From a virus: a DNA stretch of 16,824 nt. The position numbers and the translations under genes are program-made. Each line of letters starts with the position of its first letter. Within the stretch, counting starts at the first letter, position 1. The notes beneath the pieces are model-generated. The model searched no databases, had not been told where the DNA came from, and saw only the letters and a list, made by a program, of their open reading frames with translations. The DNA is taken from the UHGV virus genome UHGV-0124552. The stretch is one strand, 5' to 3'. Below, piece after piece: positions 1 through 16,824 of this stretch.

Positions 1-42
1 GATGGTTGAGAGGGTTGCAGGGTAGTAGATAAGTTTTAGATA

Positions 43-68: not shown

Positions 69-147
69 TTAATGGAAACAATAAGTTAGAGTAAAAACAA
101 TAAGTTGGGTTGGTGGTCAGTGGTGGTTATTACGGGGTAATGCCAAC

Positions 148-170
148 CGCTGCCGCCACTTTGTCGCCAC
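148..170. repeat. attL: attL core: left copy of the 23-bp imperfect direct repeat CGCTGCCGCCACTTTGTCGCCAC
   Basis: Matches 16693-16715 (CGCTGCCGCCATTTTGTCGCCAT) at 21 of 23 positions. The integrase gene lies just inside this copy and ogr just inside the other. Confidence 0.6.
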
Positions 171-175
171 TTGTT

Positions 176-445
176 TTACCTTAGACGCCATGGGCCCCTA
201 TCTTCAATCTGTTCGACTAACCCCTCCTCTTCTAGTTCACGCAATAGTGCAACAACCCAATATTGTTGGTTCGAACTTGTGGCTTTCCGTTTTTCTCCCC
301 AATCGAGGCCGCTTAGACGAAATACCTCAGCTTGCTTAACGCCGTTGCCGTTTTTTTGGGCATCTGGGTGAGTTTTAAGTACGGATAAAGCCAATTCTTT
401 GGCTCTGTTGCGCAATTCCGCTCCCTGATGCTGAAACTTATTCAT
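176..445 (-). CDS. Hypothetical 89-aa protein between attL and int; possible small DNA-binding protein
   Basis: ATG at 445 preceded on the - strand by GGAG with an 8-nt spacer. Open frame of 89 codons. No family recognised with confidence. Confidence 0.5.
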   Translation of the reverse strand: MNKFQHQGAELRNRAKELALSVLKTHPDAQKNGNGVKQAEVFRLSGLDWGEKRKATSSNQQYWVVALLRELEEEGLVEQIEDRGPWRLR

Positions 446-503
446 TGATAGTGCTCCATGTGAAAAAAAAGAATATTAGCTCAACAGGGCAAAATACGCA
501 TTT

Positions 504-1535
504 TCAAAAACTTGCTATTGATGTTGGTAGTGTTGCCAGCGGATTAAACCGTAATGCAGTTTCCAGGTGATCCGGTGCTAGATGTGCGTAACGCATAGTC
601 ATTTTTATGTCGTGATGTCCGAGGATTTTTTGCAAAGCAAGGATATTTCCACCCGACATCATAAAATGCGCCGCAAACGTATGGCGCAGAACGTGTGTCA
701 GTTGACCGCGAGGGAGCACGATAGACGTTTTTTCCATCACGGATAAAAATTGAAAATAGCAGTCTGTGAAGAAATTGAACCCATCGAGCGCCATGATCTC
801 TTCGTAAAGCTCTTTACTGATAGGGATGCTTCTGTTTTTCTTCCCCTTCGTTCTGACAAAGGTAATTCGGTATTTGGTCACCTGTGAGCGGGTAAGGTTT
901 ATTGCTTCTCGCCAGCGTGCGCCTGTGCTTAAGCATATCTTGACTACCAGTGCCAGAATTGGGTCCTGACGTTTGCAATCATCCAGCAGTTCAACAATCT
1001 GCTCATGGGTAAGCCATGCCATCTCTTTTTCTGCGATGGTGAATTTTCGCATGTTCTCCAGTGGGTTTGGATACGACCATTCGCCCAGGCGGGATAGTTC
1101 GCTAAAAACACTACTTAGATAGCTTTGCTCCAGGTTAATGGTGACCGGGCTGGCCCCTTTCTTCCATTTCTCGCTGAAGTAGATCTCACCTGTCAGTCGT
1201 TTATCTCGATAATGGGCAAACATTTTAGATGTGAGATCGGTTGCAAGGGGATTGCCCAGAGCGTCAACCATCAGCAGCAATTTGTCATAGACATGCTGCC
1301 CAGCAGTCAGAGATTTACCATGTAGTTTGAACCATAGCTCAACCACGTCTTTCAGGGTTCGACGATCTACTGATTCGCCCAGCCAGGGCTTTGCTTCGGT
1401 TTCTTCCATCGTGTGACGCTCAAAAGCCAGTGCTTCGCCTTTGGTGGCGAATTGTTTACGCACACGACGCCCACTACGTCCGGCGGGGTAACATTCGCAA
1501 AGCCATTTTCCTGTGGTGAGTTTTCGTACTGCCAT
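504..1535 (-). CDS. int: Tyrosine recombinase / phage integrase, P2/186 Int family
   Basis: N-terminus MAVRKL..GKWLCECYPAGRSGRRVRKQF closely resembles P2/186 Int (recalled from memory). C-terminal catalytic region LRHTFAAHF ... MRYAHL. ATG at 1535 has a GGAGGG RBS 8 nt upstream; the longer track ORF starting at 1613 is probably an over-extension. Confidence 0.9.
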   Translation of the reverse strand: MAVRKLTTGKWLCECYPAGRSGRRVRKQFATKGEALAFERHTMEETEAKPWLGESVDRRTLKDVVELWFKLHGKSLTAGQHVYDKLLLMVDALGNPLATDLTSKMFAHYRDKRLTGEIYFSEKWKKGASPVTINLEQSYLSSVFSELSRLGEWSYPNPLENMRKFTIAEKEMAWLTHEQIVELLDDCKRQDPILALVVKICLSTGARWREAINLTRSQVTKYRITFVRTKGKKNRSIPISKELYEEIMALDGFNFFTDCYFQFLSVMEKTSIVLPRGQLTHVLRHTFAAHFMMSGGNILALQKILGHHDIKMTMRYAHLAPDHLETALRFNPLATLPTSIASF

Positions 1536-1721
1536 AAAAAATGCCCTCCAATAGAGAGCATTTTTACTGTATGTATAACCAGTGTCAATGTATGAAATCT
1601 TGCGACCATACATCTCACTGAAGCCATAATGAAGTTGGCTATTTTTTGCTATGTGAGTATGTGACTTTTGCGGTTAGCCTGCGGCTCATTGTTATATTAG
1701 GCGCAGATATAAAAGCAAAAA

Positions 1722-1913
1722 TTATCGCGAGTTTTTAGTACAGATTTTTTTTGATTTACTAATAGTTCCATCATTGCAAACGAACTTTCCATCGGAGGTA
1801 CAGTGAGAGACACCTCCCTTTTTCCCAGAACAAGGATAATTTTTAGCATAGGTAGTTAGTGGGTTTAATAACAAAGAGCATGATAAAACCACAAAAAATA
1901 CCTTACCAAGCAT
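1722..1913 (-). CDS. Small secreted or lipoprotein-like cysteine-rich peptide (63 aa), moron between cI and int
   Basis: Strong RBS (GGAGG, 5-nt spacer) before ATG at 1913. Hydrophobic N-terminal signal-like segment [23 protein letters not shown] followed by a Lys-rich 40-aa region with 4 Cys. AT-rich relative to neighbours. Confidence 0.55.
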
Positions 1914-1928
1914 AGTTTCCTCCCGGTA

Positions 1929-2498
1929 TTACCTAACGTACTTAATTGTTAAACTTATAATTTTTCCAATTATTTCAACATCTTCTATCTTGCACTCGAA
2001 GGATCTGTTTCCACCTTCAACGAAGATTCTTCCACCGGGTAAACGAGTAATGTCGCGGATTGTTATTTCGCCATCAATACTTATTACCCATTTACCATCA
2101 CGTATATCATCAAATTCTTTATCACAAATAAATTCAGAATTGTTATCTGTGATGACAAAAGGTTTTTTAAACGTAGAGGGTAGAAATCCCTTATCAAAAA
2201 TATAAAAACCGTCTTCACGCAAGGCACCATCAGATAATACATATTTAGCAACTTCCATCGTATTTGTATTACCTGAAGTTTGCTTTGAACCATGTCCAGT
2301 TGTGAGCCAATTAAGCGAGGTGCCCGTTTCAAGGGCGCACTGGATTACCCATTCTGCTGGGAATGAGTCACGCATGTAGCGTGTAGCGAGTGTACTTTTA
2401 GAGATTCCTAAATGATCGCACAACGCCTGTCGAGTTTTGAATCCATAAGCTTCTACCATGCGCTCTATAGCGCCTCGTCCGCCTTTCTCCAAATTCAT
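1929..2498 (-). CDS. cI: Phage 186 CI-type immunity repressor (N-terminal HTH plus C-terminal oligomerisation domain)
   Basis: About 190 aa, with HTH-like segment TRQALCDHLGISKSTLATRYMRDS. Sits divergent to apl-cII as in phage 186. ATG at 2498 with GGAG 5 nt upstream; the track start at 2504 is GTG. Confidence 0.75.
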   Translation of the reverse strand: MNLEKGGRGAIERMVEAYGFKTRQALCDHLGISKSTLATRYMRDSFPAEWVIQCALETGTSLNWLTTGHGSKQTSGNTNTMEVAKYVLSDGALREDGFYIFDKGFLPSTFKKPFVITDNNSEFICDKEFDDIRDGKWVISIDGEITIRDITRLPGGRIFVEGGNRSFECKIEDVEIIGKIISLTIKYVR

Positions 2499-2522
2499 GG
2501 TCACTCCAAGTGAACTTTTATC

Positions 2523-2551
2523 TTGACGATTTCATAGTGCGATCGTATGTT
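2523..2551 (+). promoter_or_regulatory. Candidate early lytic promoter (pR-like) for the apl-cII-A operon
   Basis: TTGACG (2523-2528), 17-nt spacer, TATGTT (2546-2551), lying in the cI/apl divergent intergenic region. Confidence 0.4.
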
Positions 2552-2623
2552 TATGGTGTTCACAAAATACAAACGATCCGTATTCGTCCTGATTAATCAT
2601 CATTAAACGAGGAATGTTGCATC

Positions 2624-2845
2624 ATGAGACCTAACATTTCAATCACTCTTACCACGCCTCATGTGACTATTGAACGCTATAGCGAGCTGACAGGACTGTC
2701 CATCGATACCATCAATGACATGTTGGCTGATGGACGCCTTATCCGTCACCGTTTGCGCAAAGATAAAAAACGCGAAAAAGTGATGATCAACATAGCAGCC
2801 ATGACCGTTGATGCGCTTTCAGAATGCAATCTAAACCTTAATTAG
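2624..2845 (+). CDS. apl: Apl/Cox-like excisionase and transcriptional regulator
   Basis: 73-aa ORF that is first in the rightward operon and divergent from cI, immediately followed by a cII homologue; this is the position of apl in 186 and cox in P2. GAGGA RBS 10 nt upstream. Confidence 0.6.
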
Positions 2846-2877
2846 TTCGATTCTGAAATACATCAGAGGCATTGACC

Positions 2878-3387
2878 ATGTTTGATTACCAAGTTTCCAA
2901 ACATCCACATTTTGATGAAGCCTGTCGTGCATTTGCACTGCGCCACAATCTGGTGCAACTGGCAGAACGTGCAGGCATGAATGTGCAGATTCTGCGGAAC
3001 AAGCTGAACCCAGCTCAGCCTCATTTATTAACCGCACCAGAAATCTGGCTGCTTACCGATCTGACTGAAGATTCAACGCTGGTAGATGGTTTTCTGGCAC
3101 AGATTCACTGCCTGCCATGTGTACCGATTAATGAGGTTGCAAAAGAGAAACTGCCGCATTACGTCATGAGCGCAACTGCAGAGATCGGACGTGTTGCAGC
3201 AGGTGCGGTATCTGGTGATGTAAAAACTAGTGCCGGTCGTCGTGATGCTATCAGCAGCATTAACTCTGTAACACGACTGATGGCGCTGGCTGCTGTTTCA
3301 TTGCAGGCCCGTTTACAGGCTAATCCTGCGATGGCGAGTGCAGTTGATACCGTGACTGGCCTCGGTGCTTCATTCGGTTTGCTGTGA
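2878..3387 (+). CDS. cII: 186 CII-like lysogeny establishment regulator
   Basis: 169 aa from ATG 2878 (GAGG RBS 8 nt upstream); same size and position as 186 CII. The track start at 2872 is TTG. Confidence 0.6.
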
Positions 3388-3394
3388 GGTGCTT

Positions 3395-3595
3395 ATGCTG
3401 ACGAAAGAACCATCATTTGCATCGCTGCTGGTAAAACAAAGCCCGGCAATGCACTACGGTCACGGCTGGATCATGGGTGAGGATGGTAAACGCTGGCATC
3501 CGTGCCGTTCACAAGATGAATTGCTGGCAGAACTATCTACGAAAAAACGGGGGAACAAATGGCTATTGAAGGCGCTGCGGCGACTGTTCCATTAA
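3395..3595 (+). CDS. Small early-operon protein (66 aa), hypothetical; position equivalent to 186 fil / P2 orf78
   Basis: ATG at 3395 follows the cII stop with GAGGTG just upstream. The track ORF begins at GTG 3365, inside cII. Confidence 0.5.
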   Translation: MLTKEPSFASLLVKQSPAMHYGHGWIMGEDGKRWHPCRSQDELLAELSTKKRGNKWLLKALRRLFH

Positions 3596-3900
3596 GCCCC
3601 GGTGAACGCCTGAATGGACTTAATCACATAGCGGAATTAAGGGCAAAAGTTTTTGGCCTGAATATTGAGTCAGAGCTTGAGCGGTTTATTAAAGATATGC
3701 GTGATCCACGGGATATCAATAACGAACAAAATAAACGAGCACTGGCAGCCATATTCTTTATGGCAAAAATTCCGGCTGAACGTCATAGCATCAGCATCAA
3801 TGAGCTGACCACTGACGAAAAGCGGGAGTTGATTAAAGCAATGAATCATTTTCGTGCAGTGGTGAGCTTATTTCCCAGACGGCTAACCATGCCGAATTAA
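3559..3900 (+). CDS. Hypothetical early phage protein (113 aa)
   Basis: ATG at 3559 with GGGGG RBS 5 nt upstream. Overlaps the previous ORF by 37 nt in another frame. Confidence 0.5.
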   Translation: MAIEGAAATVPLSPGERLNGLNHIAELRAKVFGLNIESELERFIKDMRDPRDINNEQNKRALAAIFFMAKIPAERHSISINELTTDEKRELIKAMNHFRAVVSLFPRRLTMPN

Positions 3901-3967
3901 CCAACTAATGAAATTAATGGCGTAAACCCGCCGAGCATCCCTTTATCTAAATTCAGGAGAATTGATT

Positions 3968-4201
3968 ATGCGTAATATTGAGATCCTCACGACTAAAACC
4001 GGATCGGATGATGCAGGGCTTAATATTTTACTGACAGTGGCTCGTCTGGAAGAACGCCGGGCAAGGGCTGAAGCAATGGCAGCTCGCCTTGATAGCCTGG
4101 CGTGTCATATCTCATCCCGTCAGCTAAACCACGTGGAAGCAGCAGAACTACTGCGTGTAACTGCTGAAGCAATCCAGAACGAAGCGCAGGAGATCCACTA
4201 A
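3968..4201 (+). CDS. Hypothetical early phage protein (77 aa)
   Basis: AGGAGA RBS (3954-3959) 8 nt before ATG 3968. Its stop overlaps the start of the next gene (TAATG). Confidence 0.5.
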   Translation: MRNIEILTTKTGSDDAGLNILLTVARLEERRARAEAMAARLDSLACHISSRQLNHVEAAELLRVTAEAIQNEAQEIH

Positions 4202-4428
4202 TGGCTGATGCAATGGATCTCGTACAGCAGCGCGTTGAAGAAGAACGCCAGCGCCATATTCGTGCTGCCCGTGCCAAAACACCGGGCGTGTCTCGCGTGC
4301 TTTGTATTGAATGTGAAGCGCCAATTCCGCCAGCACGACGCCGCGCCATTCCGGGAGTGCAGCTTTGCATTACCTGCCAGGAAATCGCAGAGCTGAAAGG
4401 CAAACATTACAACGGAGGTGCTGTATGA
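4201..4428 (+). CDS. TraR/DksA-family C4 zinc-finger protein
   Basis: CIECEAPIP ... CITCQ gives a Cys-x2-Cys ... Cys-x2-Cys arrangement. AGGAG RBS 8 nt upstream. Typical small gene of P2-like early operons. Confidence 0.7.
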   Translation: MADAMDLVQQRVEEERQRHIRAARAKTPGVSRVLCIECEAPIPPARRRAIPGVQLCITCQEIAELKGKHYNGGAV

Positions 4429-5282
4429 GCACCATCCTGAAATGGGCGGGAAATAAAACCGCCATTATGTCCGAACTGAAAAAACACCTTCCTGCTGGCC
4501 CGCGACTGGTTGAACCTTTCGCGGGTTCCTGTGCTGTGATGATGGAGACGGATTACCCCAGCTATCTGGTTGCGGATATTAATCCTGATTTAATCAACCT
4601 CTATAAAAAGGTTGCCGCTGATTGTGAATCGTTTATATCTCGCGCCAGAGTTTTATTTGAGATCGCAAACAGGGAGGTGGTTTATTACAACATAAGGCAG
4701 GAGTTTAATTACTCCACTGAAATTACTGATTTCATGAAAGCGGTATATTTCCTGTATCTCAATCGTCACGGTTACCGTGGTTTATGTCGCTATAACAAGA
4801 GCGGGCATTTCAACATTCCCTACGGTAATTATAAAAATCCGTATTTCCCTGAAAAAGAAATTCGCGCATTTGCAGAAAAGGCCCAGCGAGCAACGTTTAT
4901 CTGCGCCAGCTTTGATGAAACGCTGGCGATGTTGAAGGCGGGGGATGTGGTGTATTGCGATCCGCCGTATGACGGTACGTTTTCCGGCTATCACACTGAC
5001 GGCTTCACTGAAGATGACCAGTATCACCTGGCATCTGTTCTTGAACATCGGTCATCAGAAGGACATCCGGTCATTGTTTCTAACAGTGACACATCCCTGA
5101 TCCGTTCGCTGTATCGCAATTTTACTCACCACTACATCAAGGCAAAACGCAGCATCGGTGTGGCAGCTGGCGAGGGTAAATCAGCAACAGAAATCATTGC
5201 TGTTTCCGGGCCGCGCTGCTGGGTGGGATTTGATTATTCGCGTGGCGTGGATAGTTCTGCCGTGTACGGAGTACGTGCATGA
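4425..5282 (+). CDS. dam: DNA N6-adenine methyltransferase (Dam-like)
   Basis: N-terminal LKWAGNK and catalytic CDPPYDG (DPPY motif). GGAGG RBS 7 nt before ATG 4425. Stop overlaps the gpA start (ATGA). Confidence 0.85.
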
Positions 5283-7693
5283 GTCATGCCGATATGAACA
5301 ACTGCTGCGGCTTTAACGAGGCTGCCGCAGCATTCTCATGGAACAGCCCGAAAAAGGCCATTAACCCTTATCTGGACCCGGCGGAAGTTGCGCCGGTTTC
5401 TACGCTTTCAAACCTGATCACTCTGTACGCTGCCGATAACGAGCAGGAACAGTTGCGCCGCGAGGCACTGAGTGATCAGGTCTGGGAGCGTTATTTCTTT
5501 AATGAATCACGTGATCCTGTCCAGCGCGAAATGGAGCAGGATAAGCTCATTAGCCGGGCAAAGCTGGCGCATGAGCAGCAGCGTTTTAATTCAGACATGG
5601 TCATTCTGGCGGACGTCAACGCCCAGCCTTCCCATATCAGCAAGCCGCTGATGCAACGTATTGAATACTTCAGCAGCCTGGGCAGGCCAAAGGCTTATTC
5701 CCGCTATTTACGTGAGACGATTAAGCCATGTCTGGAACGACTGGAGCATGTACGCGACAGTCAGCTATCTGCATCTTTTCGCTTTATGGCAAGCCATGAA
5801 GGGCTGGATGGCCTGCTGATCCTGCCTGAAATGAGTCAGGATCAGGTGAAACGCCTGTCCACCCTGGTAGCTGCGCATATGAGTATGTGCCTTGATGCAG
5901 CTTGTGGTGATTTGTATGCCACCGATGACGTTAAGCCAGAAGAAATCCGCAAGACATGGGAAAAGGTGGCAGCGGAAACCCTGCGTCTGGATGTCATCCC
6001 ACCTGCGTTTGAGCAACTCCGTCGGAAAAGAAACCGCCGTAAACCCGTGCCCTATGAACTCATTCCGGGTTCGCTGGCGCGTATGTTGTGCGCCGACTGG
6101 TGGTATCGGAAATTATGGAAGATGCGTTGCGAATGGCGGGAAGAGCAGTTGCGCGCTGTTTGCCTGGTCAGCAAAAAAGCATCTCCTTATGTCAGCTATG
6201 AAGCCGTGATGCATAAACGTGAGCAGCGCCGTAAGTCGCTGGAGTTTTTCCGTTCTCATGAACTGGTGAACGAAGACGGCGACACGCTGGACATGGAGGA
6301 TGTGGTAAACGCCAGCAGCAGCAACCCTGCGCATCGCCGCAATGAGATGATGGCCTGTGTTAAAGGTCTGGAGCTTATCGCGGAAATGCGCGGTGACTGC
6401 GCCGTTTTCTACACTATCACCTGTCCGTCGCGTTTCCATTCCACGCTAAATAACGGCAGACCAAACCCGACCTGGACAAACGCGACGGTAAGACAAAGCA
6501 GCGATTATCTGGTCGGCATGTTTGCTGCATTTCGTAAGGCGATGCACAAAGCCGGGTTGCGCTGGTATGGCGTGCGGGTGGCTGAGCCGCATCATGATGG
6601 CACAGTTCACTGGCACCTGTTGTGTTTCATGCGCAAAAAAGACCGCCGTGCCATCACTGCATTACTGCGTAAGTTTGCCATCCGTGAAGACCGCGAGGAG
6701 CTGGGCAATAACACTGGGCCGCGCTTTAAGTCTGAGTTGATTAACCCGCGCAAAGGAACGCCGACAAGCTACATCGCGAAATATATCAGTAAGAACATTG
6801 ACGGTCGTGGTCTGGCTGGCGAGATCAGCAAGGAAACGGGTAAATCTCTGCGTGATAACGCTGAATACGTGAATGCCTGGGCGTCTCTGCATCGTGTTCA
6901 GCAATTCCGCTTCTTTGGTATTCCGGGGCGTCAGGCTTACCGTGAACTTCGCTTGCTGGCTGGTCAGGCGGCAAGGCAACAGGGTGACAAAAAAGCAGGT
7001 GCGCCGGTACTGGATAACCCGCGTCTTGATGCCATTCTGGCTGCTGCTGATGCTGGTTGTTTTGCCACCTACATCATGAAGCAGGGCGGCGTACTGGTTC
7101 CCCGTAAATATCACCTCATCAGAACCGCTTATGAAATCAACGAAGAGCCGACCGCCTATGGCGATCACGGCATTCGTATTTATGGCATCTGGTCACCCAT
7201 TGCAGAGGGCAAGATCTGCACTCATGCAGTGAAGTGGAAAATGGTTCGTAAAGCCGTTGACGTTCAGGAGGCGGCAGCCGACCAGGGCGCTTGCGCCCCT
7301 TGGACTCGTGGCAATAACTGTCCCCTTGCTGAAAATTTGTACCAACAAGGGAAAGACAAATCAGCTGATGGGGATACCAGAACGGATATCACCCGTATGG
7401 ATGACAAGGAGTTGCACGATTACCTGCACAGTATGAACAAAAAAGAACGCCGGGAACTGGCTGCAAGGTTACGCCTGGTGAAACCGAAACGGCGTAGAGA
7501 CTACAAACAGCGAATTACAGACCATCAACGACAGCAGCTCGTCTATGAACTGAAGTCCAGAGGATTTGACGGCAGCGAGAAAGAGGTCGATTTACTCCTT
7601 CGCGGCGGCAGCATTCCGTCAGGAGCAGGCCTGCGTATTTTCTATCGGAACCAGCGTTTGCAGGAAGATGATAAGTGGCGGAACCTGTATTAA
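5279..7693 (+). CDS. A: P2 gpA-family rolling-circle replication initiation endonuclease
   Basis: 804 aa, with HUH-type motif VHWHLLCF and active-site tyrosine motif YIAKYISKN. Last gene of the early operon. Confidence 0.85.
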
Positions 7694-7785
7694 TTACGCG
7701 GATTAACAATTCGTGCTCTTAATAATACCAGGCATATCAGGCTGATGAACGTAAAAAAACGTTTTACATCAGTAAGATTATTATA

Positions 7786-7805
7786 TACTGTAAATATAAA
7801 CAGTG
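7786..7805 (+). promoter_or_regulatory. LexA (SOS) box overlapping a candidate promoter for the downstream Tum/DinI-like genes
   Basis: TACTGTAAATATAAACAGTG fits the CTGT-N8-ACAG LexA consensus (TACTGTATATATATACAGTA) very closely. Possible -35 TTTACA (7763-7768) and -10 TATACT (7784-7789). Confidence 0.7.
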
Positions 7806-7846
7806 GTTATGTATACAGTATTGCTTGTGGTGTCATAGGAGGAAAG

Positions 7847-8035: not shown

Positions 8036-8045
8036 GGGGACTTTT

Positions 8046-9782: not shown

Positions 9783-9848
9783 CCTAACAACAGTGCATGC
9801 CTATGCTGCCTGAATTTGCATGACCGTTTGAGGATCGTTTTTGCTAAG

Positions 9849-9875
9849 GCCCGCCAGAACTGGCGGGCTTTTGCG
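9849..9875 (+). terminator. Rho-independent terminator after the DUF2971-like gene
   Basis: GCCCGCCA (9849-9856), loop gaac, TGGCGGGC (9861-9868), then TTTTGCG. Confidence 0.65.
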
Positions 9876-9917
9876 TGGATCAGGCACCTGCATGAAAACC
9901 ACTACACAAAGCGGGCA

Positions 9918-9936
9918 GGCGTGGCGGGGATACGAG
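9918..9936 (+). other. cos: cos-like sequence (possible cohesive-end site or remnant of a P2/186-type phage)
   Basis: GGCGTGGCGGGGATACGAG matches the remembered 186 cos GGCGTGGCGGGGAAAGCAT in the first 13 nt (15 of 19 overall). It lies in a short GC-rich island between two AT-rich insertions, in the same orientation relative to Q as P2 cos. Confidence 0.4.
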
Positions 9937-10007
9937 CGCGCGCAGCGGGTGGAAACTCAGATTTGAATGTTGTATAAAAGATGGGATCATTCTGAGGAAA
10001 AGTGGAT

Positions 10008-10913
10008 ATGAAAAAGAAAACTATTCCGGAGTTGCAGAAGCAAAATCTGGCAAATTTAATTAAAAGTCGGCTTTTTCAACAGAAAAATAAAAATAAAGTT
10101 ACTGTTTTCCTTTGCGGGGGCGATTTGAATGATCCGTTTTTTTGTAGAAATAAAGTTAAAAGAGTGTTGGAAACACATCCCAAAATAGAAATATTCTATC
10201 CTGAGGAGTTGTTTGATGAGCTTTTGTATGGACAAGGTCAGCATAGTCTTTTAAGTTTGGAGAATATTTTAGCTGATTCAGTCGATGTTATTATTATTAT
10301 TCCTGAAAGCCCAGGGTCTTTCGCTGAATTGGGCGCATTTTCAAATAATGAAAAACTGTGCAAAAAAATGATATGTCTTCAGGATGACAAATTCAAACTT
10401 AAAAAAAGCTTTCTTAATTATGGGCCTATAAAACTGCTTCGGCGTGCTAATAGCGGTGCAGTATTGCGAGGAGATTTGTCGACTCTTGAAAGCTTGAGTA
10501 CAGGTAAAGCTTTTTATAATAGAATTATAAAAAGTATTAATGACATCAAAAAAAATAACCCAGTTAATCACTCAATAGATAATATTCTTCACGCTCGGCG
10601 TTTTATACTGCCATGTATATATTTGATGGATGGTATAGATAATATACTTCTATATGAGCTATTACATTTGGTGACTAAGAAAGATGCTATTCTTTGTGAA
10701 ATTATCGTTAAGTCTGTTATTTCAAGCTTGATTAAAGAGTCAATAATTAGGCGTTCAGTTCAAGGATACCATATTACAGAAATTGGTATGCAATACGTTC
10801 TTGAGCATTTTGATCGAAAGGCTTTGGACAATCTACGACTGGATATGATGAACTTCGAAAATCGTGGTAAAACAATACTCCACTATGATAGGATGCGTTT
10901 TGCGCACCCTTAG
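10008..10913 (+). CDS. Retron effector: nucleoside 2-deoxyribosyltransferase-like (NDT-like) protein, as in the Ec86 (Retron-Eco1) family
   Basis: VFLCGG ... VIIIIPESPGSFAELGAFS resembles the NDT-like fold motif with a catalytic Glu. Its stop codon lies inside the retron a1 repeat, immediately upstream of msr-msd and the RT. GAGGA RBS 9 nt before ATG 10008; the track start at 10002 is GTG. Confidence 0.65.
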   Translation: MKKKTIPELQKQNLANLIKSRLFQQKNKNKVTVFLCGGDLNDPFFCRNKVKRVLETHPKIEIFYPEELFDELLYGQGQHSLLSLENILADSVDVIIIIPESPGSFAELGAFSNNEKLCKKMICLQDDKFKLKKSFLNYGPIKLLRRANSGAVLRGDLSTLESLSTGKAFYNRIIKSINDIKKNNPVNHSIDNILHARRFILPCIYLMDGIDNILLYELLHLVTKKDAILCEIIVKSVISSLIKESIIRRSVQGYHITEIGMQYVLEHFDRKALDNLRLDMMNFENRGKTILHYDRMRFAHP

Positions 10914-11061
10914 CGAGTGGCTTCTCCGGAAGTTCACTGGACAGTGTTTCGCTGTCCTACATACAATCTGAAGTTTTACCAGTTCCCTCATTGAAAGGAG
11001 AACATCTCCCGATGTTCTCCTTTCACTTCGGAATCTGATTTTTATGACGTAAGGGTGCGCT
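10901..11061 (+). ncRNA. msr-msd: Retron msr-msd non-coding RNA (template/primer for msDNA), Ec86-like
   Basis: Inverted repeats a1 TGCGCACCCTTA (10901-10912) and a2 TAAGGGTGCGC (11050-11060). The 5' 17 nt TGCGCACCCTTAGCGAG and the 3' TGACGTAAGGGTGCGC are identical to the Ec86 ncRNA as I remember it. msr hairpin GGACAG-tgtttcg-CTGTCC (10939-10957). Long msd hairpin GAAAGGAGAACATC-tccc-GATGTTCTCCTTTC (10993-11024). Confidence 0.75.
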
Positions 11062-11062
11062 C

Positions 11063-12037
11063 ATGACTTCCGCAACACCATCTCAGGTTTTTCGCTTACG
11101 CAATCTTGGATTGCCTGTTATGTCCTCTTTAGAGGATATGTCTAGAGAAATGCGTTTATCAGTAGACATACTCCGGTTGTACATTTATCGTGCTGACAAA
11201 TACTATAAGGTTTATTCGTTGCCAAAAAGAGATGGCAAGAGATCCCGCATCATTTCACAGCCATCACGTGAGCTGAAGGCATTGCAAGCTTGGGTGTTAA
11301 GAAACATCCTTGATAAGTTACATTCATCCCCATTTTCCAAAGGCTTTGAAAAAGGGCAATCAATATTAAATAATGCCAGCCCACATGTAGGAGCTAACTA
11401 TGTATTAAATATTGATTTAGAAGATTGTTTTAATACTATTCTGATAGAGAAAATCTATACTGTTTTTCATTCTCTGGGGTATAACTCTACTATTTCTAAT
11501 GCTTTAGCAAGATTGTGTTCATTTAATGGTTCGCTACCTCAAGGTGCACCATCTTCTCCAAAGATTGCGAATCTTGTTTTAACTAAATTAGATTATAGAA
11601 TACATGGATATGCAGGTAGTAAGGGGATCGTATTTACTCGATATGCCGATGATTTGACTTTATCTGCTCAATCTTTAAAAAAAATACTTAAAGCTAAGTC
11701 ATTTGTATGCTCTATAATACCAAGTGAATCTTTGAAGGTTAATTATAATAAAGTTGCGATTCATGGCCCCAAAGCAAGGAAGGAGGTTACTGGGCTCGTT
11801 TTATCTATTGATAATGTTGGAGTTGGCAGAATACGTTATCGCGAAATTAGAAGTAAGATCCATTATCTGGCGGTAAAAAGAAATTCTGATTTCGAACATG
11901 TTAAAGGACTTATTGCGTTTGTTAAAAGTGTAGACAAGAAAAACTATAGAAAATTGATGACTTTCTCAAATAAAATGTCTGAAGCATATGGGGTTGATCT
12001 AAGTGTTCTTTTTCCTAAAAACAAAAAGGCCATTTAA
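11063..12037 (+). CDS. ret: Retron reverse transcriptase (Ec86 / Retron-Eco1-like)
   Basis: N-terminus FRLRNLGLPVM and QPSRELKALQAWVLRNILDKL closely resemble Ec86 RT (from memory). Also QGAPSSPKIANL, the catalytic YADD (RYADDLTLSA) and the retron-specific VTG motif (KEVTGLVL). Start codon abuts the a2 repeat. Confidence 0.85.
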   Translation: MTSATPSQVFRLRNLGLPVMSSLEDMSREMRLSVDILRLYIYRADKYYKVYSLPKRDGKRSRIISQPSRELKALQAWVLRNILDKLHSSPFSKGFEKGQSILNNASPHVGANYVLNIDLEDCFNTILIEKIYTVFHSLGYNSTISNALARLCSFNGSLPQGAPSSPKIANLVLTKLDYRIHGYAGSKGIVFTRYADDLTLSAQSLKKILKAKSFVCSIIPSESLKVNYNKVAIHGPKARKEVTGLVLSIDNVGVGRIRYREIRSKIHYLAVKRNSDFEHVKGLIAFVKSVDKKNYRKLMTFSNKMSEAYGVDLSVLFPKNKKAI

Positions 12038-12050
12038 TGGCCTTTTTGTT
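12023..12050. terminator. Bidirectional rho-independent terminator shared by the convergent ret and Q genes
   Basis: AAAAAGGCCAT-tta-ATGGCCTTTTT palindrome with A/T runs on both sides. The ret stop codon lies in the loop and the Q stop immediately beyond. Confidence 0.55.
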
Positions 12051-12052
12051 TA

Positions 12053-13081
12053 TTAGGTAATTGAATAACTCACGAAATTAATAACTTCTTCATTTATCCA
12101 TTCGTTCAGCTCTTCTAGTCTTTTTTGTAAAGGGATGAGTTCATTCCTCACAAAAACATTAGCAGCTTTCTCTACATCCCCAAACCCCCCAATATTATTC
12201 GGCATGATCCCCATCATCTGCGGCGGCACGCGGTGCGCAGCCATCATGTCATCCCGGCTCACGTTCTTGATATTCAGAAACTCATCCTTCGCCGCGACTT
12301 CTGACAATGGGATGATCTGAAGTCCGTCCTTTTTGCCGTTAGGCGAGTACATAAACAGATTGCGGAAGTTACCTGGTCCTTTGGCGCTTTTCATCGTATT
12401 GCGGAGGTTGTTCACATCCTCCTGGTTCTGCGCAGCATCGGTCATGTACATGATGAAGCCTGCATGACTGCCGTTAATGTAATACTTGCGGCGGAACAGC
12501 GTGGCGGACTCGTTGAGCAGAGCTGACGGAATGGCAGAAAGATAACCGGGCAGGCCGTAGATCTCCTGGTTAATGTCCGGTTCCATCAGATGAAAAATGC
12601 TGCCTTTCGTGAACTGATACGGCTGGGTTGTCATACCGTATTGCACAAACCAGTAGGTATCCAGGTCTAACCCGCGTCGGGTGTATTTTGCCAGTGCAGG
12701 CTCAAGGGCGATAACTTCACCGAAGCGGTTCGTGCGTTTCTCCAGGTAGGCGTTACCAAAAACCAGATAGTCCTGCACAAAACGCGAAAAAGCCTGCTGG
12801 CTGAGTAGCGGGTGAGGGATGTAGGTGCTGGTCAGAATGTTGCATTTCACCGCAATTGGTGAACTGTGATGCACGGCAGCGCGGAAGGTGCGCGCCAGTC
12901 CGTCAAAGCTGACAGGAGGCTCATACCAGCGATCTGTCTGTACGCATTCCACATAGTCCAGCAGTTCGCGGCGGTCAAGTACAGGAACGGGATCACCGAA
13001 GCTGAATGCTTCGGCTGAAGTCTGGCTTTTATGCTTGAGCTGATTCGTCGCCGCAGCGCGGTTTTTCTTAATCTTTCCCAT
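12053..13081 (-). CDS. Q: Portal protein (P2 gpQ-like)
   Basis: About 342 aa, size and sequence style of P2 gpQ. Convergent with ret and divergent from O, as in P2. ATG at 13081 overlaps the P stop (ATGA). The last ~25 codons (12053-12130) are AT-rich, unlike the rest of the gene. Confidence 0.8.
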   Translation of the reverse strand: MGKIKKNRAAATNQLKHKSQTSAEAFSFGDPVPVLDRRELLDYVECVQTDRWYEPPVSFDGLARTFRAAVHHSSPIAVKCNILTSTYIPHPLLSQQAFSRFVQDYLVFGNAYLEKRTNRFGEVIALEPALAKYTRRGLDLDTYWFVQYGMTTQPYQFTKGSIFHLMEPDINQEIYGLPGYLSAIPSALLNESATLFRRKYYINGSHAGFIMYMTDAAQNQEDVNNLRNTMKSAKGPGNFRNLFMYSPNGKKDGLQIIPLSEVAAKDEFLNIKNVSRDDMMAAHRVPPQMMGIMPNNIGGFGDVEKAANVFVRNELIPLQKRLEELNEWINEEVINFVSYSIT

Positions 13082-14847
13082 CAAAAAATCTCCACAATAT
13101 TGCTGGTATTGGCGGATTCGCCCTGCAGCGGTTCGTTAAACAATGCGTGCATCGTTGCCCAGGCCAGATCGGCGTGGCTGGCTTCTTCGCTGCGGCTGGC
13201 TTCATAGGTCGGGCGGTTGCCGCTGGCGGTGGTGGCGCGACGGATTGCCATGAATGACTGCGCAATGTCGCTGTGCCCGGCGTCAAACTCCAGACGGCGG
13301 TGGCTGATAATGTCGTAGGCCTTGAGTACCAGAGCGTTTTTAACGTTGGGGTTGTAGACAAACTCCCGGACGGCTGGAAAAAACGCTTTCACGTTCTCAT
13401 AAACTCCGTGACCGACACCCGTCGAGTCGATGCCGATATATGTCACGTTGTACTGTTCGGTCAGTTTTTTGATGGCGTCCGCCTGGGCGCGGAAGTCCAT
13501 CCCGCGCCACTGGTGGCGCTCAAGAATACGGAACTTACCGCCCGGCACGGCTGGCGGTGCCACCACCACGCATCCGGCGCTGTCGCCGTTCTGCGTACCT
13601 TTTGCCGGGTCATAACCGATCCACACTTCGCGCCACCCAAACGGGCGAAGGGCCAGTGCATGAAAGTCGGTCCAGACTTCCCAGCTGTCCACCATGCACG
13701 CCTGCAGCTCGCTGAGCGGAAACACGGACGCGAGATCGTCCACAAACTCGCACATCAGCAGGTTCTGGTATTCGTCCGGGCTGTACTCCATGCGTAGTTG
13801 GTCGAGGTCGAACAGGTTACAGCCGCCGCGCACCGCATCTTCCACGGTGACTATCTGGCGGTATTGCCCGTCTGCGCACAGCAGGCCGGGGGCCAGATTG
13901 CTGTGGGACAGGTCGATGTCCACCTTGTCGGCTTTGTTGCGTCCACGGTTGAACAGCGCACCGGACCAGAACGGATAAGCACTGTGGGTCAGGCTGGATG
14001 GCGTGGAAAAATAGGTTTGTCGCCATTTTTTGTGAATAGCCATACCGGAAGCCACTTTGCGCAGCTCCTGGAATTTCGGTATCCAGAAATATTCATCCAG
14101 ATACAGGTTGCCGTGGTAACTCTGGGCAGTGCGGGCATTGGTGCCGAGGAAATACAGTGTGGCCCCGTTGGGAAGCACCATCGGATCGCCTTTCAGCTCC
14201 ACTTCCACTTCTTTGGCGAAGTCGATGATGTACTGCTTAAAGACGTGCGCCTGTGCCTTACTGGCAGAAAGGAAAATCTGGTTACGTCCGGTTAGCAGGG
14301 CGTCAATCAGGGCTTCACGGGCAAAATAGAAGGTCGCGCCGATCTGGCGTGACTTCAGCAGGTTGCGGATGCGGTTGGTTTTTCCGGCTTCCCACCAGTG
14401 ACGCTGGTAGTTGAACATGGAGGAATGGAAGATTTCTTCCAGCTTCTCAATCTGTTCATCGGTGAAAACATTCTTTTCAGGCTGACGGCGCGGGCCTTTG
14501 TTGCGGTTGGCGACGTTAGGGTTTAAATCGGCTTCGTTGCCGCCATTGTTAAACTTGCCGATCCGCGCGTGGCGCTCCGACTGGCGCGCCAGCAGATCAA
14601 TTTCTTTGAAATCTTTCCCTTCTTTGTGCTCCTTCATAATGAGCTGGCAGTAACGTGCGGCGGTGGTGAGCTGCATCTGATCCAGCGGCCCATAGTCACC
14701 CCACTTGTCGCGTTTTTTCCAGCTGTGAACGGTTGCAACTTTCTCGCCCAGCATTTCAGCAATGCGGGCTACGCGGTATCCCTGAAAGTACAGCAGCATG
14801 GCCTGCCGACGGGGATCGAGATCTGCGGGTGTCAGTGTGGTGTTCAT
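13081..14847 (-). CDS. P: Terminase large (ATPase) subunit (P2 gpP-like)
   Basis: 588 aa (P2 gpP is about 590). N-terminus LDPRRQAMLLYFQGYRVARIAEMLG resembles gpP. Upstream of Q on the same strand. Confidence 0.85.
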   Translation of the reverse strand: MNTTLTPADLDPRRQAMLLYFQGYRVARIAEMLGEKVATVHSWKKRDKWGDYGPLDQMQLTTAARYCQLIMKEHKEGKDFKEIDLLARQSERHARIGKFNNGGNEADLNPNVANRNKGPRRQPEKNVFTDEQIEKLEEIFHSSMFNYQRHWWEAGKTNRIRNLLKSRQIGATFYFAREALIDALLTGRNQIFLSASKAQAHVFKQYIIDFAKEVEVELKGDPMVLPNGATLYFLGTNARTAQSYHGNLYLDEYFWIPKFQELRKVASGMAIHKKWRQTYFSTPSSLTHSAYPFWSGALFNRGRNKADKVDIDLSHSNLAPGLLCADGQYRQIVTVEDAVRGGCNLFDLDQLRMEYSPDEYQNLLMCEFVDDLASVFPLSELQACMVDSWEVWTDFHALALRPFGWREVWIGYDPAKGTQNGDSAGCVVVAPPAVPGGKFRILERHQWRGMDFRAQADAIKKLTEQYNVTYIGIDSTGVGHGVYENVKAFFPAVREFVYNPNVKNALVLKAYDIISHRRLEFDAGHSDIAQSFMAIRRATTASGNRPTYEASRSEEASHADLAWATMHALFNEPLQGESANTSNIVEIF

Positions 14848-14893
14848 GGCACAAACCTACAGCCTTGAATGAAGGCTTTCCCCGCCTGCGGTT

Positions 14894-14911
14894 TGTGTGG
14901 TTGTCGGTACA
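14894..14911 (+). promoter_or_regulatory. TGT-N12-ACA dyad typical of Ogr-dependent P2-type late promoters, upstream of O
   Basis: TGT (14894-14896), 12 nt, ACA (14909-14911), in the P/O divergent intergenic region about 80-95 bp upstream of the O start codon. Confidence 0.45.
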
Positions 14912-14989
14912 AATACCGCGCATTGTTTCACTGCCCCCATCACCGCAACCATAAGGCTCCAGTAAGTTTTTTCTAACGGAGCACGGCTC

Positions 14990-15883
14990 ATGACAGTGAA
15001 AGCAAAGCGTTTTCGCATCGGGGTGGAAGGTGCCACCACCGACGGACGCGAAATCCAGCGTGAATGGCTGGAACAGATGGCAGCCAGCTACAACCCGGCG
15101 GTGTATACCGCGCTGATTAACCTTGAGCACATCAAGTCTTATCTGCCGGACAGCACCTTTAACCGCTACGGCAAGGTGACGGCGCTGTTTGCTGAAGAAA
15201 TCACGGAAGGTCCGCTGGCAGGCAAGATGGCGCTGTATGCCGACGTTGAGCCAACAGAGTCCCTGGTGGAGCTGGTGAAAAAAGGCCAGAAATTATTCAC
15301 CTCTATGGAAGTCAGCCCAAAGTTTGCTGATACGGGCAAAGCCTACCTGGTCGGGCTGGCTGCCACTGATGACCCTGCCAGTCTGGGCACTGAAATGCTG
15401 ACATTCAGCGCCAGTGCAGCCCATAACCCGCTGGCAAACCGCAAGCAGAATCCCGCCAATCTCTTTACCGCCGCAGAGGAAACGGTGATCGAACTGGAAG
15501 AAATCCAGGAGGACAAGCCGTCCCTGTTTGCCCGCGTCACGGCGCTGTTCACCAAAAAAGAGCAGTCCGACGATGCCCGGTTCTCTGATGTGCATAAGGC
15601 CGTGGAGCTGGTCGCCACTGAGCAGCAGAACCTGAGCGCACGGACCGAAAAATCCCTGTCTGAGCAGGAAGAACGTCTGTCTGAGCTGGAGACTGCCCTG
15701 CAGGCACAGCAGACCGCCTTTAACGAACTGGTGAATAAGCTGAGTCATGAAGACAGCCGCCAGGACTACGCGAAGCTGACCATCAATGGTGAGGTGCTCT
15801 ATGAAGTGGACCTTATCAACATGGTGGAAATTGTGGACGGTGTGGACCTGATGGAAGCGCACCGCAACGCCCTCGGCCTCTGA
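14990..15883 (+). CDS. O: Capsid scaffolding protein (P2 gpO-like)
   Basis: FRIGVEGATTDGREI ... INLEH ... TSMEVSPKFADTGKAYLVGLAATDDPASLGTE ... ASDDARFSDVH aligns by eye along the length of remembered P2 gpO. GGAG RBS 8 nt upstream. Confidence 0.85.
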   Translation: MTVKAKRFRIGVEGATTDGREIQREWLEQMAASYNPAVYTALINLEHIKSYLPDSTFNRYGKVTALFAEEITEGPLAGKMALYADVEPTESLVELVKKGQKLFTSMEVSPKFADTGKAYLVGLAATDDPASLGTEMLTFSASAAHNPLANRKQNPANLFTAAEETVIELEEIQEDKPSLFARVTALFTKKEQSDDARFSDVHKAVELVATEQQNLSARTEKSLSEQEERLSELETALQAQQTAFNELVNKLSHEDSRQDYAKLTINGEVLYEVDLINMVEIVDGVDLMEAHRNALGL

Positions 15884-15894
15884 TATATCTGAAC

Positions 15895-15912
15895 GGCGCG
15901 GGATACCGCGCC
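15895..15912 (+). other. GC-rich hairpin in the short O to E' spacer (possible terminator or deletion-junction landmark)
   Basis: GGCGCGG-gata-CCGCGCC. No T-run follows, so not a canonical intrinsic terminator. Confidence 0.3.
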
Positions 15913-15937
15913 AGAACCCAATTGACAGGACAGCAAA

Positions 15938-16080
15938 ATGAGCGATAAGCAGACTGAAAAGACCATTCAACTGGATACCCCCATCAAGCGCGGTAAAACA
16001 GAAATCACCGAAATTGTGCTGCGTAAACCGCAGTCCGGTGCGCTGCGCGGTACACGCCTGCAGGCCATTATGGATACCTG
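15938..16080 (+). pseudogene. Truncated tail assembly chaperone gpE-like N-terminal fragment (E')
   Basis: First ~47 aa (TIQLDTPIKRGKTEITEIVLRKPQSGALRGTRLQAIMD) fit the gpE-type tail assembly chaperone pattern. Beyond about 16080 the frame reads into unrelated residues before stopping at 16246. Confidence 0.5.
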
Positions 16081-16383
16081 GTGGGTACGGATGAAAACGT
16101 GCTGGTACTTAATCGCACTTATGCCAACCGGAGCAACGCTGAACGGGCAGCGAAAATGCAGTGGGAACGCCTGCAACGCGGCGTTGCGTCATTCTCGCTA
16201 CAACTGGCGGAAGGGCGGGCAGATCTCTACACAGAAATGCCTGTGAAGGTCAGTGGCTTTAAACAGCCGATAGATGATGCGGAATGGACCATTACGACTC
16301 TGACGCATACCGTCAGCCCGGATAACGGTTTTACGACCAGTCTGGAGCTTGAAGTGAGGATTGATGATTTCGAAATGGAATGA
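16081..16383 (+). pseudogene. C-terminal fragment of tail protein gpD (D')
   Basis: ERAAKMQWERLQRG ... RADLYTEMPVKVSGFK ... GFTTSLELEV resembles the C-terminus of P2 gpD (from memory). It lacks the ~290 N-terminal residues and is out of frame with the upstream E' fragment. Confidence 0.55.
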
Positions 16384-16473
16384 TTCTTCGCAATGGAGAA
16401 CTTTTAAGTTTGCAAAATGGAATAATGCGGTATCATTATTGTGAATTTAGCAAAAATGGGGAGAGCTCGAAAA

Positions 16474-16692
16474 ATGATGATTTGCCCACTGTGTGGAAGT
16501 GCCGCCCATACTCGCAGCAGTTTTCAGGTATCTTCATTGACCAAAGAGCGTTACAACCAGTGCCAGAACATTAACTGCAGCCATACTTTTGTTACCCATG
16601 AAACTTTTGTTCGTTCGATTGCAACGCCAAAAGAGTCAAATCCGGTTCAGCCGCATCCAATGAAATCAGGACAGGTGGCGCTCTCTCTTTGA
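16474..16692 (+). CDS. ogr: Ogr-family zinc-finger late gene transcriptional activator
   Basis: 72 aa; CPLCGSAAHTRSS ... KERYNQCQNINCSHTF ... RPHP closely matches remembered P2 Ogr (CPLCQHAAHARTS ... KERYHQCQNVNCSATF ... RPHP). ATG at 16474; the track start at 16441 is GTG. Confidence 0.9.
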   Translation: MMICPLCGSAAHTRSSFQVSSLTKERYNQCQNINCSHTFVTHETFVRSIATPKESNPVQPHPMKSGQVALSL

Positions 16693-16715
16693 CGCTGCCG
16701 CCATTTTGTCGCCAT
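16693..16715. repeat. attR: attR core: right copy of the 23-bp imperfect direct repeat CGCTGCCGCCATTTTGTCGCCAT
   Basis: 21 of 23 identical to 148-170. Begins immediately after the ogr stop codon. Confidence 0.6.
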
Positions 16716-16778
16716 CGTTAAAGAATAGTGCTTCTAACATCATGATTTTAAACAGCTTAAATTTCAGACAACAAAAAA

Positions 16779-16821: not shown

Positions 16822-16824
16822 AAA

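Follow-up and report, generated by a model that had tools for sequence, protein, structure and literature searches.

Two nearly identical 23-mers lie near the ends of the prophage DNA held in a stretch of 16,824 nucleotides (hereafter the window), which raises the question of whether they are the cores at which the element was joined to its host, as an earlier sequence-only reading proposed, or another part of the integration system. The two copies, CGCTGCCGCCACTTTGTCGCCAC at 148-170 and CGCTGCCGCCATTTTGTCGCCAT at 16693-16715, indeed differ at two positions, and have no further match in the window at up to three mismatches; none of 200 shuffles gave any. We consider it very probable that the element is a defective P2-like prophage (Peduoviridae) of the 186/Fels-2 type located at the 3' end of rybB, in which the 23-mers are arm-type sites of the integrase (Int). 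The features of the window are collected in Table 1.

Table 1. Features of the window, with the evidence on which each assignment is based.
Feature	Position	Strand	Basis
Host gene rcdA (ybjK), 3' end with TAG stop at 23-25	1-25	+	E. coli genome matches annotated rcdA
attL core, host-type sequence	30-55	.	Repeat search, non-randomness, empty-site alignment
Hairpin carried by the phage, AACCCATTT/AAATGGGTT, with a T-run after it (minus strand)	49-70	-	Read from sequence
Two exact AAACAATAAGTT repeats, P' arm	76-106	+	Read from sequence; conserved in KP12
Left 23-mer, read as P' arm-type Int sites; tandem 11-bp TGCCGCCACTT (151-161), TGTCGCCACTT (162-172)	148-170	+	Consensus match
orf89, hypothetical protein (WP_001032044.1), 89 codons	176-445	-	Open reading frame, relatives' annotation
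Integrase, 186-type tyrosine recombinase, 343 aa from MAVRKL	504-1535	-	Pfam Int_N + Phage_integrase
CI repressor, 186 type	1929-2504	-	Pfam Phage_CI_repr + Phage_CI_C
ORF at Apl/Cox position, 73 aa; candidate excisionase and switch repressor	2624-2845	+	Position
CII-like regulator	2872-3387	+	Pfam Phage_CP76
Dam-type DNA adenine methyltransferase	4365-5282	+	Pfam MethyltransfD12
Replication endonuclease gpA	5279-7693	+	Pfam Phage_GPA
DinI/Tum-like protein	7974-8279	+	Pfam DinI
Cargo gene, DUF2971 / PDC-S31 candidate defence protein	8664-9782	+	Family and PADLOC profile searches
Conserved island with cos-like sequence GGCGTGGCGGGGATACGAGCGCGCGC (from 9918)	9795-9943	+	Comparison with 4LV2017, KP12
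Retron type II-A (St85 family) NDT effector	10002-10913	+	PADLOC NDT_II-A 2.6e-97
Candidate retron msr-msd non-coding RNA	10905-11056	+	Folding
Retron reverse transcriptase, II-A / St85 family	11063-12037	+	Pfam, PADLOC, NCBIfam
Portal protein (gpQ)	12053-13084	-	Pfam
Terminase large subunit (gpP)	13081-14847	-	Pfam
gpO scaffold fused in frame to last ~38 codons of tail tube FII	14990-15883	+	Pfam, blastn
gpE fragment	15938-16076	+	Pfam, blastn
gpD C-terminal fragment	16077-16383	+	Pfam Phage_GPD profile positions 237-302, blastn
ogr late-gene activator, 72 aa from ATG at 16474	16474-16692	+	Pfam Ogr_Delta
Right 23-mer, read as P arm-type Int sites; TGCCGCCATTT (16696-16706), TGTCGCCAT (16707-16715)	16693-16715	+	Consensus match
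attR core, phage-type at variable positions 16761, 16765, 16769	16758-16783	.	Same as KP12 attP core
Host sRNA gene rybB, 3' 55 nt; window stops within gene	16770-16824	-	Rfam RF00110

The ends of the element can be read directly from E. coli strain M19, whose rcdA/ybjL intergenic region is unoccupied: window positions 1-55 are there joined straight to 16784-16824 and the alignment breaks off exactly after position 55. An uninterrupted rcdA/ybjL site is present in 4227 of 5426 complete E. coli genomes. According to the sequence-only reading an empty site should carry a single 23-mer; the M19 locus contains none at up to three mismatches and carries instead one copy of a 26-bp core. This core belongs to a second direct repeat, imperfect and non-random, with copies TAAGTTTTAGATAACAAAAAACCCAT at 30-55 and TAAATTTCAGACAACAAAAAACCCAT at 16758-16783, and it behaves as an att core in being single in M19, single in the attP of phage KP12 and hybrid in its variants. 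Its three variable positions show host bases in attL and phage bases in attR, the pattern expected for a crossover inside 42-55, where a 14-bp perfect block, AACAAAAAACCCAT, is identical across attL, attR, attB and attP. Considering that rybB, an sRNA gene, ends with these same 14 nt, the gene and its terminator stay intact on insertion. The partial rybB in the window matches Rfam RF00110 with 62.6 bits over model positions 25-79 and has its 3' end at 16770, the terminator being restored at attR, and the full gene in the empty site scores 105.3 bits (Rfam), with its 3' end at the position that corresponds to 42 in the window.

The 23-mers consequently do not delimit the element, since phage DNA runs on for 92 bp leftward (56-147) and 42 bp rightward (16716-16757) of them; both stretches are contiguous in KP12 and present in Klebsiella phage 4LV2017, whose authors annotated attL and attR at the rybB core. 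An attP rebuilt at the 26-bp core aligns with KP12 over 302 bp, gapless and with 97% identity, and in both the core has ogr on one side, int on the other and a 23-mer on each flank. The broader proposal of a P2-type prophage with ogr and int at opposite ends, inserted through site-specific recombination, is upheld by these comparisons, and so is the use of a host site other than the classical P2 one, the target being the 3' end of rybB. The detailed placement of the two genes was correct for ogr, which has the same length as in KP12 (219 bp) and whose stop codon (16690-16692) directly abuts the right 23-mer, but not for int: a module of ~340 bp, which carries orf89, has been inserted there and separates int from the P' arm sites of the left copy. 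The orf89 product gave no match in Pfam, NCBIfam or PADLOC.

Each 23-mer is a pair of 11-bp tandem repeats (TGCCGCCAYTT, TGTCGCCAY), of which TGCCGCCACTT, TGTCGCCACTT, TGCCGCCATTT and TGTCGCCATCG match the consensus tgccGCCActt / YAYCGCCAYTY. The first form is the published arm-site consensus of 186-type integrases (PMC3448106) and the second is that of the phage 186 record (NC_001317), where Int arm-type sites are annotated and labelled 'predicted'; the P' pair of 186, TACCGCCACTT TATCGCCATTC, has almost the same sequence as the repeats described here. The identity of the motif and its conserved spacing are direct observations: the repeats (2+2) all lie on the plus strand, with the P pair at -74 bp and the P' pair at +109 bp from the core block, and in phage ev129, whose Int is 86% identical, conservation is confined to three islands, namely the core and both repeat pairs, at unchanged spacings of 74 and 109 bp. 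The repeats are present in the attP of both KP12 and ev129 and missing from the empty site, and given that the attP of KP12 is contiguous and has both 23-mers on the flanks of the core, they show the geometry of integrase arm-type sites. Tandem NNYCGCCAY pairs also occur on both arms in phages with other cores (SEN8, PHB48 and SW9), the core being apparently ssrA/tmRNA in SEN8 and tRNA-Ile in PHB48. Among relatives the arm motif (CGCCAY, TGTGGACA or GGGGACA) tracks the type of integrase, not immunity or core. TGYCGCCAY is also found at 14018 and 14538, within the terminase gene, so that a lone copy is not diagnostic.

The integrase itself is 55% identical to 186 Int, N-terminus included, and its N-terminal KWLCECY places W, E and Y at a spacing of +0, +3 and +5, as in positions 16, 19 and 21, which discriminate the 186 type (PMC3448106). 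The same 1032-bp int gene was called by PGAP in 17MR471 and CFT073, and the Int of the window, in which the last six residues are altered, is a variant that occurs in 209 genomes, including a full-length prophage. The 23-mers are, as a prediction from these sequence comparisons, most likely the arm-binding sites of this integrase. By analogy with P2, 186 and lambda, Int would physically bind the 23-mers, with its N-terminal domain on the 11-bp repeats and its other domains on the core, and such a heterobivalent tyrosine integrase would bridge arms and core into an intasome. Integration would then leave one repeat pair at each end of the prophage, and excision, for which the remnant may still be competent, would need both pairs again.

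Two further features occupy the phage DNA at the left end. The left half of the hairpin lies within the core, the hairpin is conserved in the attP of KP12 and ev129, and the 186 record has a terminator annotated at the analogous place; it is likely to be the terminator of the lysogenic (cI-int) operon. The AAACAATAAGTT repeats may be sites for an accessory factor; their motif was not found in the cI/apl switch region.

Two other readings of the 23-mers were weighed against that of arm sites. If they were attL and attR cores, formed by recombination of attP with a host attB holding one 23-mer, their highly non-random repetition near both ends of the phage DNA would be expected, as would the contact of one copy with ogr and the proximity of int to the other. 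This is refuted by the empty site, which lacks the 23-mer and joins 55 to 16784, and the idea retains practically no probability considering also that 56-147 and 16716-16757 are phage and not host DNA, that both copies are found within a single attP in KP12 and ev129, and that the literature and the deposited annotation put att at the rybB core. Alternatively, the 23-mers could have been kept for a reason other than Int, either as sites of another protein (Apl/Cox, CI through its flanking operators, or IHF) or as a coding echo, the left copy being kept merely as C-terminal codons of Int and the right copy arising from it by gene conversion. In 4LV2017-type phages the left copy does encode the Int residues GDKVAAA, and CI flanking sites and Apl sites do lie near att in 186. 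We nevertheless regard such an origin as quite improbable, given that the left 23-mer has the same sequence in 4LV2017, where it codes for the C-terminus of Int, as in the window and CFT073, where it is non-coding, that the right copy is always non-coding, and that the motif co-varies with the integrase type rather than with immunity or core. Moreover, the annotated Apl and IHF sites of 186 differ from it in sequence and position, and TGYCGCCAY was not found in the cI/apl switch region.

Inside these boundaries, the ORF at the Apl/Cox position is weakly similar to the N-terminus of 186 Apl (pairwise E 1e-4) and has no family match in Pfam or NCBIfam. Tum of phage 186 is an SOS antirepressor. 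Its gene is annotated as encoding a DinI-like protein in the 186 record. In the cargo region, the segment 9795-9943 is the only one common to the window, 4LV2017 and KP12; the first 13 nt of its GGCGTGGCGGGGATACGAGCGCGCGC correspond to the 186 cos sequence, and the island may function as cos. The NDT effector also matches NCBIfam STM3845_fam with a score above the cut-off. The candidate msr-msd, placed between effector and reverse transcriptase, folds into a closing stem, two short hairpins and a long one (MFE -63.7 kcal/mol, z -6.57), with no match in Rfam.

The element was previously described as complete, yet it measures 16,728 bp, whereas the annotated attL and attR of 4LV2017 enclose 33,414 bp. 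Two internal deletions are directly visible by blastn against that phage: the first, with its junction at 15766-15769 and CTAC microhomology, lost 11,149 bp, and the second, at 16075/16076 with TA microhomology, lost 4,640 bp. Capsid, lysis and most tail genes are gone, ~15.8 kb of late genes in total, and instead of a complete P2-like set (N, M, L, X, lysis, R, S, V, W, J, I, H, G, FI, FII, E, T, U, D) the structural and lysis genes are reduced to Q, P, the O::FII' fusion, E' and D'. In the fusion, Pfam places Phage_GPO at residues 6-259 and Phage_tube at 259-296. The first of these illegitimate deletions spans N to FII, most of which is gone, and the second runs from the remainder of E into D, again with most of the last gene lost. 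The element can no longer form virions; what it retains are its att sites, int, the switch, the replication genes and the defence cargo. Both junctions together were found in no other complete E. coli genome of the collection; other O-to-D deletion remnants exist at the same locus, and their junctions differ.

The half-length element could instead be viewed as a selected, helper-dependent, satellite-like defence island, which excises, replicates and is packaged by intact relatives, for example as a dimer, 16,728 bp being half of 33,414 bp. Both att cores, the four arm repeats, int, the cI/apl/cII switch, Tum, gpA, the cos-like island, the portal, the large terminase and two defence loci (the retron and the PDC-S31-like gene) have all been kept, and the further O-to-D remnants at the locus also fit such a view. 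On the other hand, the confinement of the junction pair to this copy among the complete E. coli genomes of the collection gives no sign of spread, microhomology of 2-4 bp is typical of random illegitimate deletion, the differing junctions of the other remnants suggest independent decay, and no genes for capsid size or helper exploitation were seen. Taken as a whole, this makes a satellite very improbable.

The defective prophage is thus an ordinary member of a known system: publications already cover integration at rybB, arm repeats of the 186 type and the hotspot for defence cargo. Its rcdA/ybjL site, P2-like gene order, 186-type int and cI place it among the rybB-integrating Peduoviridae (hotspot #29 / PhiECO1 group). 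The same integration site is used by the PhiECO1/2/3 and PhiSEN1 prophages (Nilsson et al., 2011; PMC3448106), rybB-integrated Felsduovirus corresponds to hotspot #29 (Hochhauser et al., 2023; PMC10121019), and the Kpn38RybB prophage also occupies the rybB site (Hudson et al., 2014; PMC4048246). The start of PhiECO3 (CFT073 908870), 17 bp past the rcdA stop, is window position 42, and CFT073 has an identical orf89 protein beside an integrase gene of equal length. The backbone is homologous to that of 4LV2017 (~95-96% DNA identity), and the defence cargo lies between gpA and the portal gene, as in the rest of the rybB group, from which the element differs in the ~15.8 kb of late genes lost and in a cargo made up of the PDC-S31-like gene and a II-A retron. 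It adds one more case of a resident prophage with late genes deleted and defence genes kept. In P2/186-like prophages, then, the terminal direct repeat that stands out most can consist of the Int arm sites and not of the att core; boundaries set by the arm repeats would here misplace the ends by 118 and 68 bp and hide the target, rybB.

A close parallel is the attP of phage 186, with the same order of late activator (B/ogr), P repeats, core, P' repeats, (small ORF), int and cI, the same tandem 11-bp NNYCGCCAYTY on both arms in a single orientation, and a P' pair ~100 bp from the crossover. The two differ in their cores, at tRNA-Ile (ileY) in 186 and at the 3' end of rybB here, in repeat position 2 (A in 186, G here), in the number of arm sites (3+2 annotated in 186, 2+2 here) and in the small ORF, orf89 being unrelated to orf69 of 186. 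The P-arm pair also lies ~50 bp nearer the core than in 186, a counterpoint to the arm-site reading. Phage P2 likewise has tandem direct repeat pairs on both arms, by ogr and the 3' end of int, although its arm motif is TGTGGACA, its Int is just 38% identical, and its core and host site are others. The P2 core overlaps the terminator of the sRNA gene cyaR. In lambda, a heterobivalent tyrosine integrase uses arm repeats that are distinct from the core and split between attL and attR, whereas the site sequences are unrelated to those of the element and the number and arrangement of the sites and the accessory factors are different.

The sequence-only reading had placed the ends of the element at two 23-bp imperfect direct repeats (23-mers). 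These were found at 148-170 and 16693-16715, differing at two positions. With up to three mismatches allowed, the window has no further match, and 200 shuffles produced none. Immediately before the right copy stands the ogr stop codon (16690-16692), in agreement with the description of ogr as ending there. A repeat scan revealed a second terminal direct repeat, missed in that reading and likewise non-random, at 30-55 (TAAGTTTTAGATAACAAAAAACCCAT) and 16758-16783 (TAAATTTCAGACAACAAAAAACCCAT). Positions 1-55 lie in E. coli at the rcdA 3' end, and nearly all genomes of the species contain 16758-16824. In the rcdA/ybjL intergenic region of E. coli M19, which is unoccupied, window 1-55 is followed directly by 16784-16824. 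Among 5426 complete E. coli genomes, 4227 have the site uninterrupted and around 1120 carry the attL-type junction. The three variable positions of this 26-bp core (33, 37 and 41) carry host bases in attL and, in attR, the bases of the contiguous attP in the phage record KP12, as expected for strand exchange inside the identical 14-bp block 42-55/16770-16783 (AACAAAAAACCCAT). The authors of the Klebsiella phage 4LV2017 record annotated attL and attR at this same core.

The right flank was identified with Rfam as the sRNA gene rybB, which is cut by the window end and scores 62.6 bits; the complete gene of the empty site reaches 105.3 bits. The 3' end of rybB coincides exactly with the start of the 14-bp block, so the core consists of the 3' half of the terminator stem plus the T-run. 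rybB is reconstituted by attR, and at attL the T-run pairs with a phage-borne hairpin (49-70). No tRNA or tmRNA gene was found in the window, the target being an sRNA gene instead. An origin of the right flank from the K-12 ogrK/cyaR P2 remnant was rejected, given that the matching 'DH5alpha' record has an apparently full prophage adjoining ybjL. In that record (NZ_CP026085.1, labelled E. coli DH5alpha), the P2-like late genes tape measure, U, D and ogr directly adjoin ybjL and suggest that a rybB-type prophage is present in full, which is unexpected for a laboratory strain of K-12.

An attP rebuilt as 16600-16783 joined to 56-260 gives an ungapped 302-bp alignment with KP12 (97% identity); in the KP12 record int and ogr are adjacent and both 23-mers flank the core. 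On this alignment, the 23-mers are located in phage DNA. Each is made of tandem 11-bp repeats, TGCCGCCACTT and TGTCGCCACTT in the left copy, TGCCGCCATTT and TGTCGCCATCG in the right. The published consensus is tgTGGaCa for P2-type integrases and tgccGCCActt for 186-type ones (Nilsson et al., PMC3448106). The phage 186 record lists predicted Int arm-type sites (consensus YAYCGCCAYTY) either side of attP, in the pairs CACCGCCATTC TATCGCCACTC and TACCGCCACTT TATCGCCATTC. The integrase of the window shares 55% identity with 186 Int, and the W, E and Y of its N-terminal KWLCECY are spaced like the three 186-type discriminator positions (PMC3448106). Tandem NNYCGCCAY pairs occur on both arms in relatives with other cores, namely SEN8, PHB48 (tRNA-Ile) and SW9; arm pairs elsewhere read TGTGGACA (P2) and GGGGACA (phage ESSI2_ev015). 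The SEN8 core is presumably the ssrA/tmRNA 3' end. With the attP of the related phage ev129 (Int 86% identical, other neighbouring genes), only three islands align: the core plus hairpin and the repeat pair of either arm. Their spacings equal those in the window, the 14-bp block lying 74 bp from the P-arm pair (ogr side) and 109 bp from the P'-arm pair (int side). The left 23-mer is the same whether it codes for the Int C-terminus (...SGDKVAAAVGITP, 4LV2017) or is non-coding (window, CFT073). All this fits a reading of the 23-mers as predicted arm-type sites for the tyrosine integrase, a heterobivalent enzyme. As a separate observation, ev015 has the tRNA-Ile core of the 186-like PHB48 but GGGGACA rather than CGCCAY arm pairs, indicating that arm-site and core types reassort among P2-like phages.

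That the 23-mers are themselves att cores has next to no probability and falls to the refutation proposed with that reading, the lack of a single copy in an empty site: the M19 locus joins 55 to 16784 and holds no 23-mer. In addition, both copies flank the core in KP12. A role unconnected with Int is unlikely, because the motif tracks integrase type, not immunity or core type, and is unlike the Apl and IHF sites annotated in 186.

By its Pfam content, the window holds a 186/Fels-2-type P2-like prophage; this and the rybB target bear out the proposal of a P2-type prophage that does not use the P2 site. Besides the integrase, Pfam gives a CI repressor, a CII-like regulator, a Dam methylase, gpA and a DinI/Tum-like protein, followed by a low-GC cargo block, portal Q and terminase P (minus strand), scaffold O and ogr. 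Most of the late region is missing. Two deletions were placed by blastn against the 33.5-kb 4LV2017 (around 95-96% identity over the backbone), making the element a defective remnant and not a complete genome. The O ORF (14990-15883) carries at its end the last ~38 residues of tail tube FII as an in-frame gpO::FII' fusion, and an E fragment and then a C-terminal D fragment lie 3' of it. The repeats were a real observation and their interpretation partly right; misjudged were where the element ends, what the repeats are and whether it is complete. None of the complete E. coli genomes searched has both deletion junctions together. Late-gene loss at rybB is recurrent, as O-to-D deletion remnants of other kinds occupy this locus in E. 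coli PSJ-16, MB7671 and ECCWS199. Core to core the remnant spans 16,728 bp, almost exactly half of the 33,414 bp from attL to attR in intact 4LV2017, probably by coincidence; a satellite-like role, to which this match and the retained parts point and nothing beyond, is very improbable.

Features of the remnant, with positions along the window
Feature	Position	Strand	Details
AAACAATAAGTT, two exact copies	76-87, 95-106		P' arm, between core and arm sites; 19 bp apart; conserved in KP12
orf89 module	174-523		~340 bp
orf89	176-445	minus	89-aa hypothetical protein WP_001032044.1
Integrase	504-1535	minus	Pfam
DUF2971 protein gene	8664-9782	+	low GC; PADLOC candidate defence family PDC-S31, 1e-23
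Cos-like island	9795-9943		149 bp; 87-88% conserved with 4LV2017 and KP12, amid unrelated cargo
NDT effector	10002-10913		retron II-A/St85
Candidate msr-msd RNA	10905-11056	+	between NDT effector and RT
RT	11063-12037		retron II-A/St85
Deletion junction 1	15766-15769		4-bp CTAC microhomology; 11,149 bp removed, N to inside FII
Deletion junction 2	16075/16076		2-bp TA microhomology; 4,640 bp removed, inside E to inside D

On the P' arm, the orf89 module separates int from the left 23-mer in the window and CFT073, begins exactly after the second arm repeat and swaps the last 14 Int codons for 6 others. It is carried by 209 of the 5426 E. coli genomes, among them CFT073 and 17MR471, the latter in a full-length prophage. 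orf89 occupies the position of 186 orf69, with no sequence similarity to it, and has no family match in Pfam, NCBIfam or PADLOC. The AAACAATAAGTT copies were rejected as Apl/Cox operators, since the cI/apl switch region lacks the motif and its enrichment is only marginal; sites for an excisionase or for IHF are a possibility.

In the cargo block, the candidate msr-msd RNA would fold into a closing stem (CACCCUUA/UAAGGGUG) with one 15-bp hairpin and two short ones (MFE -63.7 kcal/mol, z -6.57); Rfam gave no retron ncRNA match, neither at gathering nor with E allowed up to 1. The placement of the ncRNA differs from 4LV2017, whose effector and RT genes adjoin each other directly. The classical P2/186 cos 19-mer has at best a 3-mismatch match, at 9918, and the cos-like label is kept because the island is conserved. 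The island contains GGCGTGGCGGGGATACGAGCGCGCGC, of which the first 13 nt equal the 186 cos sequence. It is probably the cos site, splitting the cargo hotspot in two; the PDC-S31-matching gene lies on its gpA side, and the hotspot thus holds two defence loci.

Prophages at rybB have been described before. PhiECO1 (E. coli HS), PhiECO2, PhiECO3 (CFT073 908870-942351) and PhiSEN1 have their integration site in common (Nilsson et al., PMC3448106). The CFT073 rcdA stop is at 908853, which puts the published PhiECO3 start at window position 42. PhiECO3 opens with genes for the same orf89 protein as in the window and for an integrase. Hotspot #29 comprises only Felsduovirus prophages, within rybB, with at most two defence systems each (Hochhauser et al., 2023, PMC10121019), and a Fels-2-like island, Kpn38RybB, is also known (Hudson et al., 2014, PMC4048246). 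Site, arm motif and cargo hotspot have therefore all been described, and the system is an ordinary, already known one.
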